The notes beneath the pieces were generated by a model. That model saw nothing but the letters and a program-made list of their open reading frames with translations, did not search any database and had not been told where the DNA came from. From the NCBI GenBank assembly GCA_951812955.1, contig OX638340.1, positions 320,001 to 384,000 of the forward strand: 64,000 nt of DNA, read 5' to 3'. Below are positions 37,013-41,324 of this stretch, one piece after another; the stretch's first letter is position 1, and each line of letters opens with the position of its first letter. Source of the DNA: an uncultured Gemmatimonadota bacterium. Its GTDB lineage: Bacteria; JAAXHH01. The translations under genes were made by a program, and so were the position numbers.

Positions 37013-37858
37013 ATGGCGACCGGTTTGACCGAACACCAGATCAGTCAGTATCTCGAAGACGGTTTCCTTCCCATCGAAAGGCTGTTCGATCCCGATTCCC
37101 TCGATCCCCTGATCGCGGAGCTGAACGGGGTCGTCGATGCATGGGCGGAGCGCTACCACGCGGAGGGCAGACTGGCGGATCTGTACGCGGACGAGCCCTT
37201 TGAACACAGGCTGTACCGGATCCACCAGGCCATGGACGGTCGCTGCGGAGAAATGCTGGAGGCCGTGTTAGGAAAGCGGAAGACCGCGGGCATGTTTCAC
37301 GTCATGACCCTGCCCGGGATACTCGACGTCGTCGAATCCCTCATTGGCCCGGAGATCCTCGTCCATCCCCAGTTCAACTCCCGGGCCAAGCTTCCGGACA
37401 AGACCTCCGTCGTGGACTGGCACCAGGACATCGGTTTCCTGGATCCGGACGTGATGCGGACCTTCATGGTCAATTTCTGGCTGCCGATGGTGGATACAGA
37501 TGAACACAACGGCTGCCTGGAGGTGATCCGAGGCAGTCACCGCAGTGAACGCCTGCCCTTTGAGAATTCACCCGAGAACATCGACCCTGAAGCCCTGCCC
37601 GACGGCGACCGGGTGTCCTGCCCCATCCCCAGGGGCGGCGTGCTCCTGTTGCAGCACACCACGGTGCACCGGTCCGCGCCGAATTACTCCGATCATATTC
37701 GCTGGAGCCTGGATATCCGGTACAGCGACTGGCGAGCGCCCACGGGAAGGGACGATGTGCCCGGCTTCATCGCCCGCAGCCGGTCGCATCCGGAGAAGAT
37801 CGCAACCGGGCACGAAGAATGGCGGCGCTTGTTCGAGACGAGCGGGGCGCCGGAGTAA
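37013..37858 (+). CDS. phytanoyl-CoA dioxygenase (PhyH) family oxygenase
   Basis: PhyH-family pattern (..DGFLPIE.., HQDIGF, HRSAPNYS) with the iron-binding His-x-Asp...His arrangement. Confidence 0.85.
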   Translation: MATGLTEHQISQYLEDGFLPIERLFDPDSLDPLIAELNGVVDAWAERYHAEGRLADLYADEPFEHRLYRIHQAMDGRCGEMLEAVLGKRKTAGMFHVMTLPGILDVVESLIGPEILVHPQFNSRAKLPDKTSVVDWHQDIGFLDPDVMRTFMVNFWLPMVDTDEHNGCLEVIRGSHRSERLPFENSPENIDPEALPDGDRVSCPIPRGGVLLLQHTTVHRSAPNYSDHIRWSLDIRYSDWRAPTGRDDVPGFIARSRSHPEKIATGHEEWRRLFETSGAPE

Positions 37859-37914
37859 TTTCCTGGAGATGATCGAACCGCCCTCGTATATGCTTCGTTG
37901 CCAGCGAGGATTCC

Positions 37915-39426
37915 GTGGTCGCCAAAATAAACCTCGGGACGTACGTCGGATACGGACTGGACCGAATGGGCAGTCCCGTACATGCCCTGCCTGTCGACCT
38001 CTTCAGGATACTGGCGGGACTGTTGAGTTGCGCCTATTTCGCAGCGGCCTTCGGCGAAGTAAACGACATAAGCGGACCCGGTGGTCTGGTCGATCATCGA
38101 CTCTCGCTGGAGCTGTTTCCCTACACGAAATGGAGCCTGCTTCAGGGTGAAGTTCCCACCGTTCTGCTCCGGGCCGTCTTTGCGGGAGCCATCCTGGTTT
38201 CCGGCATACTCGCGGCTGGATATCGGCCAACGCTTTGTGCGGCGGTGCTGTATATACTGGCGGTATCGGCCTATCGACTGAATTTCCTGGTACTCTACGT
38301 CGATGATGCCGTATTTCACTGGATGCTCCTGTGGCTGATCCTTTTGCCCACGGGGAGCACGTTGACGTGGAAGGACGTCCGGTGCGACGGCAAGGCGGCC
38401 ATGGATCGCTGGCGCAGCCGGACCGTGCCGGGACTGGCCGTACGATGTTTCCTGGTCAATCTGGCCCTGCTTTATGCCTTTTCAGGTCTTTGGAAACTGA
38501 CCAGTCCCATGTGGTTGGAAGGGACGGCCCTGTACGTCATCCTGAAACTGCCCATTGCATGGTTTCCTGATCTGTGGGATGCCGGATCACTGCCGTGGAT
38601 GAAGATCGCCGGCTATGCGGCGTTGGCGTCGGAACCCCTGTTCGTTTTGCTGCTGTTTCTCAAGCCGGGACGACCGGCCAGGTGGATGATCATTGCCCTG
38701 CTGATCGCCTTTCACGCGGGTATAGTCGCGACCCTGAAGATCCCCTTCGCCAACGTCGCCTGCCTGGCGGGGGTAGTACTCTGGTGCCGCCACGAAATCA
38801 TGAACGCGATGGGGAGGAAGACCGTCCCGGAAGGAAGGGGAAAGGTTACCTGGCGCGGCGCGGCGGCCGTGGTGGTCACGGGCATGCTGGGTTTGCAGGC
38901 CGTCCTGGATTTCGCAAAGCCGCAGTGGCGTTACGACGACTGGGAAGTGGGCAGGCCCGTCCCGGCGCAGCAGAAATGGCTGGACGGTCTTCACCTTGCC
39001 GTGTACGGTGCGCTGTGGGCGGGTGGACTGGCGCAGAGCTACCGCCTGCTCGACTGGGTCGACAGCCGCAACTATACGCTTGATTACCGGGTAAGGGAAA
39101 GACGGCCCGAAGGACCTTGGAACGAAGTAGAACCGGAAACCCTCTTTCCCTCTTCCATGCGGGGAATCCTGCTTCAATCCTATCTGCATGGCGTGGTCTG
39201 GCGCAAGTTTCCCCCGGTGAAGGAAGCCGAATTGCGGGCGGGGTTGCGGCAGCGCTTCGCCGCTCGCTATTGCAGAGGGCGGCCAGGCACCGATCTGGTG
39301 GTAGACGTGGAAGTACGGATCGACCGTGTGCTTCCTGACACGCCGCGGCCGGAAAGCGGTGTTTACACTCCCCTCATGCGTTTTGCCTGCGGGAAAGGCG
39401 GGGCGCAACTTCTGGAGATCGAGTAA
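37915..39426 (+). CDS. polytopic membrane protein with C-terminal soluble domain (HTTM-like / SdpB-like, tentative)
   Basis: About 280-aa N-terminal region with about 7 TM helices, resembling HTTM-domain proteins, then an about 200-aa Arg/Trp-rich soluble domain. Its stop overlaps the start of the downstream AsnB-like gene (TAATG). The ORF-track start is GTG at 37915. Alternative ATG at 37966. Confidence 0.6.
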   Translation: MVAKINLGTYVGYGLDRMGSPVHALPVDLFRILAGLLSCAYFAAAFGEVNDISGPGGLVDHRLSLELFPYTKWSLLQGEVPTVLLRAVFAGAILVSGILAAGYRPTLCAAVLYILAVSAYRLNFLVLYVDDAVFHWMLLWLILLPTGSTLTWKDVRCDGKAAMDRWRSRTVPGLAVRCFLVNLALLYAFSGLWKLTSPMWLEGTALYVILKLPIAWFPDLWDAGSLPWMKIAGYAALASEPLFVLLLFLKPGRPARWMIIALLIAFHAGIVATLKIPFANVACLAGVVLWCRHEIMNAMGRKTVPEGRGKVTWRGAAAVVVTGMLGLQAVLDFAKPQWRYDDWEVGRPVPAQQKWLDGLHLAVYGALWAGGLAQSYRLLDWVDSRNYTLDYRVRERRPEGPWNEVEPETLFPSSMRGILLQSYLHGVVWRKFPPVKEAELRAGLRQRFAARYCRGRPGTDLVVDVEVRIDRVLPDTPRPESGVYTPLMRFACGKGGAQLLEIE

Positions 39427-41324
39427 TGTGCGGCCTGGCAGCCATCATGAGCCGGGGCGGCGCCTGGTCTCGAGCGGCGCTCGAGCGCGCCACGGATACG
39501 CTCCGGCATCGCGGTCCGGACGGCAGGGGGACCTGGGCCGGACCGGGAGGAAACATCGGCCTGGGACACACCAGGCTGAGTGTGGTCGGCCTGGATAACG
39601 GCGCCCAGCCCATCGCCAGCGAAGATAGCCGGCTTCACCTGGCGGCCAACGGCGAATTCTACGATTTCGAGTCGATCAGGCGGGATCTCGAAAGCCGGGG
39701 TCATGTATTCTCCACGAGATCCGACAGCGAAATCGCCCTCCATCTCTACGAAGAGTCGGGCCGTGCCTGTGTCGAAGATCTCCGCGGCGAGTTCGCTTTC
39801 GTCCTGTGGGATGAGGACCTGCAGATGTTGTGGGCGGTCCGCGACCGATTCGGCATCAAGCCGCTTTACTATGCGGAGGAGGGCGGGGTGCTGTACCTGG
39901 CCTCGGAAGTGAAGGCGCTGCTGGCCGCAGGATTGCCTTCGGCCTGGGACGAGGAGACGGTCTTCCAGCAGATGTTCGCCTGCTTCGACGCGAACCGGAC
40001 GCTCTTCAAAGGTGTCCGGCAGGTACCGCCCGGGCACGGCCTGATCGCCCGGAAAGGAGAGCTCCGCCTTGAGCGGTACTGGGATGTCACGTATCCGCGA
40101 GGGGCGTCCGGAAGTGAGTGGGAGCCAGCGGCTTGTGCCGACGAAGTCCGCCATCTCCTCCACGAGTCGGTCCGCCTCCGAATGCGTGCCGACGTTCCCG
40201 TGGGTTGTCTCCTGAGCGGGGGAATGGACTCTTCGGCATTACTCGGGATCGCCGCCCGGGGCGCGTCTACCCCTAAAGCCTTCACCATCGCCTTCGATCA
40301 CGCCGACTACGACGAAGAACCCGTTGCCCGCCGCACGGCCCGCCATGTGGGGGCCGACTACGAGGTCGTGCAGGCAACCCAGGCGGACTGCGCCGACTAT
40401 TTCGCAGACGCGGTGTGGCACGCCGAGGCGATCCAGGCCAACGCGCACGGAGTGGCCCGGTTCGTACTGAGCCGCGCGGTGCGCCAAGCTGGATTCAAGA
40501 CCGTTCTGGCGGGTGAAGGCGCAGACGAACTCTTCGCCGGCTACGAATTCTGCAGGCCCGCTTTGCATCGGGGCCCGCGTCGCCCTTTCATCGACCTGTT
40601 TCGAATCGCCCGAGCGGTGATCGGCGCACACAGCCCCGCGGAAAGAAAGGTGGCTCTGGTCTCGCCCTGGCTGGTACGGGTAAGCCGCGTACTAGGCCTG
40701 TCGAAGGAGGTCATGGAAGCACTTGCCGGACAGCAGGGCGTCCTGCGCAGTCTGCTGGCGGCGGATTTCCATGAAAGACATAGAGGCCGCGATCCCTACA
40801 GAGTCTTCTTCGACCAGTTCGATTATCGTACGCAACTGGCCGGCCGCGAACCGGTGAAGCAGGTGCTCTACCTGTGGCTGAAATCCCTCTTCCCGGGCTA
40901 CAACCTGGCTGCCGAGCGTGTAGACATGGCCCACGGAGTGGAAGTCCGTCTCCCGTACCTGGACCACCGCCTGTTCGAATACGGCAGCAGGATCCCGGCC
41001 GCGCTTTTGTTCCGGGATGGACAGGAAAAACATCCGCTGCGCGAAGCGGCCCGGCCGTACCTGACGGACGAAGTGTACGCGGGTCCGAAGAAACCGTTTC
41101 TCGCGCCTCCCGCGACGGCCCGGGTGGGAAATAGGCTTTACGAGATGTGCCAGGATACCCTGCGAGGTCCGGGTATGCGGGATCTGCCCTTCTTCGATCC
41201 GGCGTCCGTTGCCCTTCTGCTTGACGGACTGCCGCGCATGGAAGACAGGGCGCGGGCCACGCTGGATCCGTTGATCATGGCCCTGACCTCCCTTTGCGTG
41301 ATCCAGGAGCGATACGGTATGTGA
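39426..41324 (+). CDS. asparagine synthetase B (glutamine-hydrolysing) family amidotransferase
   Basis: N-terminal Ntn glutaminase with Cys2 (MCGLAAI). PP-loop ATP pyrophosphatase motif SGGMDSS. About 630 aa. Context (PhyH + membrane protein) suggests a tailoring role rather than housekeeping AsnB. Confidence 0.88.
   Translation: MCGLAAIMSRGGAWSRAALERATDTLRHRGPDGRGTWAGPGGNIGLGHTRLSVVGLDNGAQPIASEDSRLHLAANGEFYDFESIRRDLESRGHVFSTRSDSEIALHLYEESGRACVEDLRGEFAFVLWDEDLQMLWAVRDRFGIKPLYYAEEGGVLYLASEVKALLAAGLPSAWDEETVFQQMFACFDANRTLFKGVRQVPPGHGLIARKGELRLERYWDVTYPRGASGSEWEPAACADEVRHLLHESVRLRMRADVPVGCLLSGGMDSSALLGIAARGASTPKAFTIAFDHADYDEEPVARRTARHVGADYEVVQATQADCADYFADAVWHAEAIQANAHGVARFVLSRAVRQAGFKTVLAGEGADELFAGYEFCRPALHRGPRRPFIDLFRIARAVIGAHSPAERKVALVSPWLVRVSRVLGLSKEVMEALAGQQGVLRSLLAADFHERHRGRDPYRVFFDQFDYRTQLAGREPVKQVLYLWLKSLFPGYNLAAERVDMAHGVEVRLPYLDHRLFEYGSRIPAALLFRDGQEKHPLREAARPYLTDEVYAGPKKPFLAPPATARVGNRLYEMCQDTLRGPGMRDLPFFDPASVALLLDGLPRMEDRARATLDPLIMALTSLCVIQERYGM

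Follow-up and report, generated by a model that had tools for sequence, protein, structure and literature searches.

How vitamin-K-dependent chemistry arose has long been an open question, and relatives of the vitamin-K-dependent carboxylase are widespread in bacteria with, to our knowledge, almost none of them having a known function. This work focuses on a membrane protein of the corresponding fold class (hereafter MEM) and on the asparagine-synthetase-like amidotransferase (hereafter AsnB) encoded directly after it in an uncultured Gemmatimonadota bacterium (assembly GCA_951812955.1, contig OX638340.1, positions 320,001 to 384,000; this whole stretch of 64,000 nucleotides (nt) is called the window). 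Both genes lie at positions 37915-41324 of the window, behind a gene for a PhyH-type dioxygenase, and an initial annotation had read the three as a single operon. We report here that the conserved unit is the MEM-AsnB pair, which occurs in several phyla of soil bacteria, and we weigh what the two proteins may do together.

Several described systems offer points of comparison. AsnB-family enzymes with an intact glutaminase domain, such as those of the LtsA/AsnB1 and WbpS type, are established amidotransferases of the cell envelope, and SdpB, a protein of the HTTM family, is required for maturation of the SdpC toxin. In human GGCX, K218 serves as the base in the deprotonation of vitamin K hydroquinone, and the Glu-binding pocket consists of N159, H160, Y395 and R436 (PMC12589487). 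The bacterial precedent is MloH, presented in a citing preprint as a GGCX-like carboxylase from the malonomycin pathway whose target is an aspartyl residue (Law et al., 2018, cited in bioRxiv 10.64898/2026.08.19.745780), so that, on this account, bacterial GGCX homologues can be real carboxylases. Compared by description only, MloH and MEM are of the same fold class and both bacterial, a non-protein substrate having been demonstrated for MloH; however, MloH carries a fused DUF5819-like region and is encoded in a polyketide synthase-nonribosomal peptide synthetase cluster, whereas MEM belongs to a free-standing two-gene cassette.

Conservation of the MEM-AsnB Pair

The distribution of the pair was surveyed in 185,579 species genomes, one genome per species, which returned at least 140 matches (a lower bound, the scan being limited by its search pattern) and 79 loci. 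Gene order was read by tblastn of the window proteins, and 76 loci extend far enough to be informative. In 72 of these 76 species genomes, MEM is followed directly by AsnB on the same strand; the initial annotation had made its proposal hinge on synteny being shared with related genomes, and for these two genes it is. In metagenomic contexts of MEM homologues at 40-75% identity, an AsnB-like gene likewise comes next in five cases out of five, while the rest of the context varies. Carriers belong to the Gemmatimonadota (many of them Longimicrobiales), the Acidobacteriota (Pyrinomonadaceae, Blastocatellia, Chloracidobacterium, Vicinamibacteria, and Bryobacteraceae), the Verrucomicrobiota (Opitutaceae), the Latescibacterota and the Armatimonadota, and some metagenome-assembled genomes labelled "proteobacterium" are found among them as well. 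The pair is present on the complete metagenome-assembled chromosomes OY762445.1, OZ245326.1, OZ220749.1 and OY843748.1. Across 78 loci, the AsnB start lies -16 to 89 nt from the MEM stop (median 9 nt), and overlaps such as the TAATG stop/start coupling pointed out by the initial annotation (Table 1) recur across phyla in 14 of them. Pairwise identities of MEM and AsnB are correlated (r = 0.96 overall, 0.68 among distant pairs), which fits co-inheritance, though shared phylogeny contributes. The functional unit is thus a two-gene operon, MEM-AsnB, co-inherited across at least five phyla, in which each gene delimits the clade of the other. No published description of an HTTM or vitamin-K-carboxylase-type protein paired with an amidotransferase was found in a partial literature collection, and the pairing appears undescribed.

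The exceptions are few. At L046 in a member of the Binatia (859-6623), MEM lies between a rhamnosidase gene and a gene for a FadD4-like AMP-binding enzyme, the latter standing where AsnB would be. At L047 in Ca. Entotheonella palauensis (3345-9522), MEM is part of a MacAB-like export operon (HlyD, MEM, FtsX, FtsX/MacB_PCD, and an ABC ATPase with a cNMP-binding domain) and AsnB is absent. AsnB is also absent at L069 and is divergent at L048.

No other gene accompanies the pair throughout. Neither all-against-all clustering of the open reading frames (ORFs) at 85 loci nor a census of 133 flanking proteins with Pfam yielded a third conserved gene, and the same census gave no conserved protease or leader-binding protein and no conserved peptidoglycan or lipopolysaccharide genes. 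A search for ORFs of 18-90 amino acids (aa) within 700 nt of the pair at about 80 loci returned no conserved small ORF, only Arg-rich alternative-frame or lineage-local clusters. The initial annotation had seen no precursor peptide and no B-protease, and this absence of a recognizable cluster for a peptide made on the ribosome and modified after translation (RiPP) extends to the pair loci as a group. Peptidase genes (S15/S9, M1, DUF4344) are frequent neighbors; in Longimicrobiales, what had looked like a MEM paralogue upstream was rejected as a clustering artefact, the gene in question encoding an S15 peptidase.

Some loci stand out by their surroundings. Genes of thiol-redox type are repeatedly seen next to the pair, and DCC1-like oxidoreductase genes lie there at two loci (L003:12027-12434 and L006:7278-7748), and a FadD11-like gene resembling fatty-acid-CoA ligases lies 3′ of MEM-AsnB at L167:2345-7902. 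At L006:1-17515, the pair is situated between phage-integrase, IS1595 and IS91 genes, and its AsnB is cut to 504 aa, with an RVT_1 reverse-transcriptase gene on the opposite strand overlapping the AsnB 3′ end, an arrangement that suggests mobility and a group-II-intron-like insertion.

Status of the PhyH Gene

An ORF scan and Pfam agree with the initial annotation that three co-directional ORFs are present in the window and that the first and third carry PhyH and AsnB-like domains. The iron-triad motif HxD...H is present in PhyH (H137-Q-D139, and QHTTVH at residue 214). PhyH and MEM are separated by 56 nt, with no terminator-like site between them in a pattern scan, and a GAGGA is located 4 nt 5′ of the MEM GTG at 37915. 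The spacer at 36867-37012, 5′ of PhyH, has a GC content of 45% against 60% for the window and, as had been noticed, contains promoter-like hexamers; promoter-type sites in the upstream region number 3 against 1.3 ± 1.2 in shuffled sequences, barely above expectation and weak by itself. The match at 36932-36960 (Table 1) could drive PhyH, MEM and AsnB together in the source genome.

Comparison with other genomes nevertheless separates PhyH from the pair. An equivalent of this gene is found upstream of the pair in three of eight close relatives, namely L007 (OY762445.1, a 95%-identical genome), L010 and L012, and each time it is accompanied by a PhyH/MR-MLE/amidohydrolase block. In L001/L009, L008 and L014, members of the same clade with 75-77% MEM identity, the position is occupied instead by a gene for a long protein with DsbA/Thioredoxin_4 and SurA_N domains (L009:4488-5642), directly upstream of the pair. 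L011 is uninformative, as its contig ends 170 nt upstream of MEM, and in all of the approximately 70 distant loci PhyH is absent upstream of the pair. Downstream, the NCS2, PhyH, alcohol dehydrogenase (ADH) and DUF362 genes, together with the flanking PhyH paralogues, represent a synteny of the closest clade only. Because the PhyH position varies even among close relatives, and because this downstream synteny goes no further than the closest clade, the unit comprises two genes, and PhyH is a lineage-specific neighbor that moves with its upstream block. Pfam does match the PhyH paralogues on either side and an NCS2 permease, as the initial annotation had it, yet neither they as module context nor the three-gene operon as a functional unit withstood this comparison.

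MEM, a New Family Within the GGCX/HTTM Fold Class

Sequence models hardly reach MEM. The window protein has no Pfam match at E ≤ 10 and no NCBIfam match at E ≤ 0.01, and it stays below the gathering score of Pfam HTTM (PF05090). The family profile matches nothing among all PDB sequences, and a family member with a precomputed HTTM match likewise retrieved no GGCX chain in a sequence search. Database searches yielded 191 relatives; a precomputed PF05090 match is recorded for 2 (among 120 homologues), and one bears the NCBI name "HTTM domain-containing." When 56 family members were scanned one by one against Pfam (E ≤ 1), weak matches were obtained to DoxX (15), HTTM (8, best 9.4e-7), DUF3556 (7) and LMF1 (2), models that we take to represent related families. 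With sequences clustered at 50% identity, an exhaustive profile search counted 178 such clusters at E ≤ 1e-30, 1,552 at E ≤ 1e-10 and 5,582 at E ≤ 1e-3. Judged by these scores, the MEM family is small and distinct and lies inside a large superfamily. Its likeness to the HTTM, LMF1, DUF3556 and DoxX families, which include Bacillus subtilis SdpB and lipase maturation factor 1, comprises these weak matches from MEM relatives as well as DCC1-like and DsbA-like genes near MEM, often seen with HTTM proteins. On the other hand, no model of these families reaches the window MEM at E = 10, and an AsnB partnership was not found for these families in the literature search.

Structure prediction is far more telling. 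An AlphaFold2 model of MEM built from a 56-sequence alignment reached a predicted local distance difference test score of 88.7 and a predicted template modeling score of 0.89. In a Foldseek comparison with the PDB, all 16 top matches are human GGCX (E 1.6e-8 to 1.4e-3, TM-score ~0.5), and no match other than GGCX falls below E 0.1. On this model, MEM belongs to the GGCX/HTTM fold class and is superposable on GGCX. The HTTM-like call of the initial annotation is hence borne out by fold, GGCX being the only significant PDB match, and finds no match among the Pfam and NCBIfam sequence models.

Human GGCX (a reference sequence identical to PDB chain 13ib_A over 758 residues) was aligned with the MEM family profile by hhalign over 267 columns, with E 0.0085 and a probability of 4.7%. 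This alignment pairs R31 of MEM with R68 of GGCX, W122/N123 with W157/N158, K194 with K218, W200 with W223, G203 with G226, and F266/H267 with F286/H287. K194, which the marginal alignment thus sets opposite the catalytic lysine of GGCX, is invariant in 56 sequences and is placed at the outer end of transmembrane helix 5. The Glu pocket has no such counterpart: N159/H160 stand opposite F124/L125, and since the alignment of the MEM C-terminal domain with GGCX 355-560 is not significant (E 0.23), Y395 and R436 are unplaceable. The residues invariant in MEM are D28, R31, D60, H61, R121, D131, H135, K194, W200, E240, H267, N280, Q374, Y376 and W381, and N123 reaches at least 90% conservation across the family. 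D131 lies in a four-residue insert relative to GGCX, near H135, and several of these residues (D60, H61, R121, D131, H135, N280, Q374, and Y376) form a polar cluster of MEM's own at the predicted periplasmic face.

The topology of MEM is predicted to be that of GGCX, with the N-terminus inside, about nine transmembrane helices and a C-terminal alpha/beta domain of ~170 aa in the periplasm. Lys and Arg residues number ~18 on the loops predicted to be cytoplasmic vs. ~6 on the periplasmic ones. A periplasmic C-terminus is further supported by P0226 (L166:627-3488), a distant family member whose C-terminus is fused to a cytochrome c domain of about eight haems (8 CxxCH; c7/MtrC/c554 matches), because such a domain can mature only in the periplasm. 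This fusion also points to redox chemistry. The relative is encoded on a 3.7-kb contig without AsnB and has Ser at the position equivalent to K194. Other variants, P0051, P0059, P0074 and P0078 (~677 aa), P0093 (653 aa) and P0123 (795 aa), carry N-terminal extensions of 150-290 aa that have no Pfam match and are presumably cytoplasmic.

Despite the likeness in topology and in paired residues, MEM differs from GGCX in several respects: sequence identity is 10-14%, the outer domain is about half as long (~350 aa in GGCX), and MEM is bacterial and paired with an amidotransferase. Because MEM fails the Pfam HTTM threshold and does not have the Glu pocket, we place it in a new family within the GGCX/HTTM fold class and do not class it as a Glu carboxylase.

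AsnB, a Dedicated Branch of Amidotransferases

The AsnB of the pair scores 428 bits against TIGR01536, asparagine synthase (glutamine-hydrolyzing), whose cut-off is 267. Several AsnB-family enzymes also act outside primary metabolism, and their specialized models were considered in turn: TIGR03108 of the XrtA/PEP-CTERM system, which is the second-best NCBIfam match (348 vs. a cut-off of 817), TIGR03104 of NAGGN synthesis (295 vs. 570), and NF033535 of the lasso cyclases (199 vs. 525). The window AsnB lies far below all of these, as it does below the E. coli-type model (280 vs. 499), so that assignment to the exosortase, NAGGN, lasso or macrolactam subfamilies was rejected, every model scoring under its cut-off. 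No exosortase, NAGGN or lasso genes were found near AsnB among the window proteins or in the flanking-protein census. Among PDB sequences, the best matches are the hydroxyamidotransferase TsnB9 (7ylz, E 5e-56), E. coli AsnB (1ct9, 8e-49) and human ASNS (6gq3, 1e-34), and paired AsnB has the same domain order and catalytic motifs as these three.

Both active sites are intact in sequence. The MCG start that provides the Cys2 nucleophile is present in all 57 full-length paired AsnB orthologues, whereas the lasso cyclases, from which the pair also differs by the lack of a conserved precursor or B-protease, do not need this Cys. Invariant residues are found in the glutamine site (N75, G76, D100), in the PP-loop SGGMDSS (S264, G266, D268, S269) and in GEGADE (E364, equivalent to E. 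coli E348, with D367 and E368), to which K555 (equivalent to K449) can be added. With the Ntn-glutaminase site and the adenylating site both intact, AsnB is, judging from its residues, an active cytoplasmic amidotransferase that acts on a carboxylate with glutamine and ATP.

The enzyme departs from the structurally known ones in an insertion of ~85 aa between GEGADE and a C-terminal ER.DMAHGVE.R.P.LD motif, in its position directly after MEM, and around the aspartate site. In a HMMER alignment, Y492 and A495 stand opposite D384 and R387 of the E. coli enzyme, which we take to be an Asp/ATP-site pair. The TTxR residues T322, T323 and R325, implicated in Asp/ATP binding in E. coli (PMC5775275), are likewise unmatched, with N339, A340 and a gap opposite. 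The paired clade has its own invariants, N339, H341, R345, W484, F489 and Y492, and A495 in all sampled members. These mismatches leave asparagine synthesis possible, because other long AsnBs differ from E. coli there too.

The boundary of the clade was determined by scanning metagenomes with a profile of paired AsnB and sampling homologues from 54% down to 29% identity. All five homologues at 52-57% have MEM upstream (L086 at 54% and four chosen from the AsnB side), whereas none of 16 full-length homologues at 44-48% has MEM within 3 kb, and these share no common neighbor. In this unpaired sister clade, which meets TIGR01536 only, N339, H341, W484 and Y492 are shared with the paired clade, and the differences are R345K, F489L, A495L and D500E. 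Among sampled homologues, then, paired AsnB is a distinct, dedicated branch defined by its partner and not a free-standing gene, in that pairing is found at 52% identity and above and never at 44-48%, and the initial reading is supported to that extent. Matches at 29-36% are dominated by the motifs D..D.S..P and D...D..K.DR of the common long AsnB type, which presumably includes the meso-diaminopimelate-amidating LtsA and Mycobacterium tuberculosis AsnB enzymes; both motifs are absent from paired AsnB. A branch at 35-41% (L101, L108, L109) is flanked by a Zn-dehydrogenase-like gene and an S-adenosylmethionine-dependent methyltransferase gene, the short L110 by the methyltransferase only, so that the wider subfamily occurs in tailoring contexts.

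Gene Layout in the Window

The features of the locus are listed in Table 1. Pattern scanning of the 200-nt spacer between AsnB and NCS2 gave a weak hairpin, and the number of such sites does not differ significantly from expectation. Neither a second AsnB nor a second MEM is encoded within the 64-kb window. Around the pair, at 31249-36866 and 41525-53691, lies an apparent catabolic island with genes for an HpcH aldolase, a Kelch protein, three PhyH paralogues, an MR/MLE enzyme, an amidohydrolase and an NCS2 permease, and also for a Zn-ADH, DUF362, TRAP DctQ/DctM, a gamma-glutamyltranspeptidase, an Fe-ADH and a kynureninase-like protein. Further upstream, the minus strand encodes a 641-aa Sel1-repeat protein (29020-30945) and a 583-aa ORF product with no Pfam match (26883-28634).

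Table 1. Genes and sequence signals of the MEM-AsnB locus and its flanks (window positions).
Feature	Position	Strand	Details
PhyH paralogue	33127/33199-34035	+	E 7.8e-12
Sigma-70-like promoter match	36932-36960	+	TTGACA-17 nt-TATCGT, 10/12; pattern match only
PhyH gene	37013-37858	+	281 aa; PF05721 E 2.3e-25
MEM (membrane protein) gene	37915-39426	+	503 aa; GTG start
TAATG stop/start overlap MEM-AsnB	39424-39428	+	TAA 39424-39426, ATG 39426-39428, one base in common
AsnB-like gene	39426-41324	+	632 aa; Asn_synthase E 1.9e-82, GATase_7 E 2e-41, GATase_6
Terminator-like hairpin, weak	41450-41468	+	In the AsnB/NCS2 spacer; pattern scan, 5 sites vs. 3.7 expected, not significant
NCS2 permease	41525-43312		E 1.2e-46
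PhyH paralogue	43419-44201	-	E 7.2e-45

Proposed Mechanism and Alternatives

The reading that we tentatively prefer, with a likelihood somewhat short of even, is that a cytoplasmic AsnB is coupled to a periplasm-facing, quinone-type, GGCX-like MEM and that both act on one common substrate of the envelope or membrane. AsnB would activate a carboxylate with ATP on the cytoplasmic side and convert it to a carboxamide with glutamine-derived ammonia, either docked on MEM or working just before it, and MEM would use menaquinone for base or redox catalysis on the outer side of the inner membrane. The carrier phyla make menaquinone. The shared substrate would bear a carboxylate and be membrane-bound or exported, possibly a lipid, an envelope precursor or a secreted protein, and it would be one that cells commonly contain, since the pair is not accompanied by a substrate gene of its own. 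A partner role in carboxylate activation would also fit the replacement of AsnB by a FadD4-like adenylating enzyme at L046 and, by analogy, the MloH precedent. An accessory character of the pair, as suggested by the integrase- and transposase-rich region at L006 and by the narrow distribution, may count in the same direction.

Several observations weigh against this reading. The active sites of MEM and AsnB are on opposite sides of the membrane, so that a shared substrate would need flipping or export. Similarity to GGCX is weak in sequence, given the hhalign values and the lack of any PDB match by profile, and the equivalence of K194 and K218 therefore rests on a marginal alignment and on fold; moreover, the cytochrome-fused relative P0226 has Ser instead of Lys at this position. 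AsnB itself passes the TIGR01536 cut-off, and its unpaired sister clade resembles a solitary housekeeping gene. Plain asparagine synthesis may thus still be the task of the enzyme, and adjacency alone would be no proof of a complex.

The alternative that fares best, though we consider it doubtful, is that AsnB is a genuine asparagine synthetase, either housekeeping or condition-specific, and that MEM is an accessory such as a tether or a redox or quinone sensor, or is chemically unrelated. The TIGR01536 score, the intact catalytic motifs and the frequent peptidase neighbors are in line with it, as are the nearest unpaired relatives, which share the subfamily motifs and whose gene neighborhoods vary as those of a lone metabolic gene would. 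Coupling to one membrane protein across five phyla, with pairing as the limit of the clade, is nevertheless unexpected for a housekeeping enzyme, and the mobile region at L006 and the narrow distribution also speak against it; the unmatched E. coli residues around the aspartate site add little, other long AsnBs differing there too.

A bolder form of the preferred reading, which we hold to be unlikely, has MEM act as a genuine carboxylase-type enzyme that depends on menaquinone, with the pair carrying out an as yet undescribed modification in two steps. For example, C-H deprotonation and carboxylation driven by quinol and O2 at the outer membrane face might be combined with ATP- and glutamine-dependent amidation of a carboxylate on the same molecule. 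If true, a free-living bacterial GGCX homologue would for the first time have a physiological role that does not belong to a natural-product cluster.

Amidation of the envelope itself is a slightly weaker candidate still. AsnB would act on a lipid-linked carboxylate (meso-diaminopimelate, D-Glu, a uronic acid or a lipid head group), and MEM would serve as a scaffold or as a modifier after flipping. The AsnB family provides the precedent, a self-contained cassette requires a substrate that is a common cell component, and genes resembling fatty-acid-CoA ligases adjoin MEM at L046 and the pair at L167, while the DsbA/SurA-like and DCC1-like neighbors are envelope redox proteins. Paired AsnB, however, does not have the motifs of the common long type to which LtsA and M. 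tuberculosis AsnB presumably belong, and peptidoglycan and lipopolysaccharide genes are not conserved nearby.

Maturation of the SdpB type is very improbable. Here, AsnB would amidate or activate a ribosomal peptide encoded elsewhere, and MEM would process it at the membrane, for which one may invoke the SdpB precedent, the protein substrates of GGCX together with the GGCX-like lumenal domain kept by MEM, and the MacAB-like export operon that includes MEM in Ca. Entotheonella. Against this stand the lack of a conserved small ORF and of a conserved protease or leader-binding protein around the pair, and the glutaminase domain that AsnB, unlike the lasso cyclases, has retained, in keeping with its low NF033535 score. 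Least probable of all is a three-enzyme pathway in which hydroxylation by PhyH, a membrane step by MEM and amidation by AsnB tailor a small molecule or lipid, since the co-directional genes with their short, terminator-free PhyH-MEM gap, the promoter-like site found only upstream of PhyH and the same arrangement in L007, L010 and L012 are outweighed by the absence of PhyH upstream of the pair in L001/L009, L008, L014 and the distant loci and by its co-variation with the PhyH/MR-MLE/amidohydrolase block instead. Small-molecule or lipid tailoring as such, which the initial annotation had favored, is possible.

Concluding Remarks

The MEM family is invisible to Pfam and NCBIfam, yet it has a fixed partner that can be interpreted enzymatically. 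Because this partner is a carboxylate amidotransferase, the substrate is narrowed to a carboxylate-bearing molecule, and the pair opens an experimental route to what bacterial GGCX homologues do. For the organisms concerned, more than 100 genes annotated as "asparagine synthase" in Gemmatimonadota, Acidobacteriota and Verrucomicrobiota may fall outside primary metabolism.

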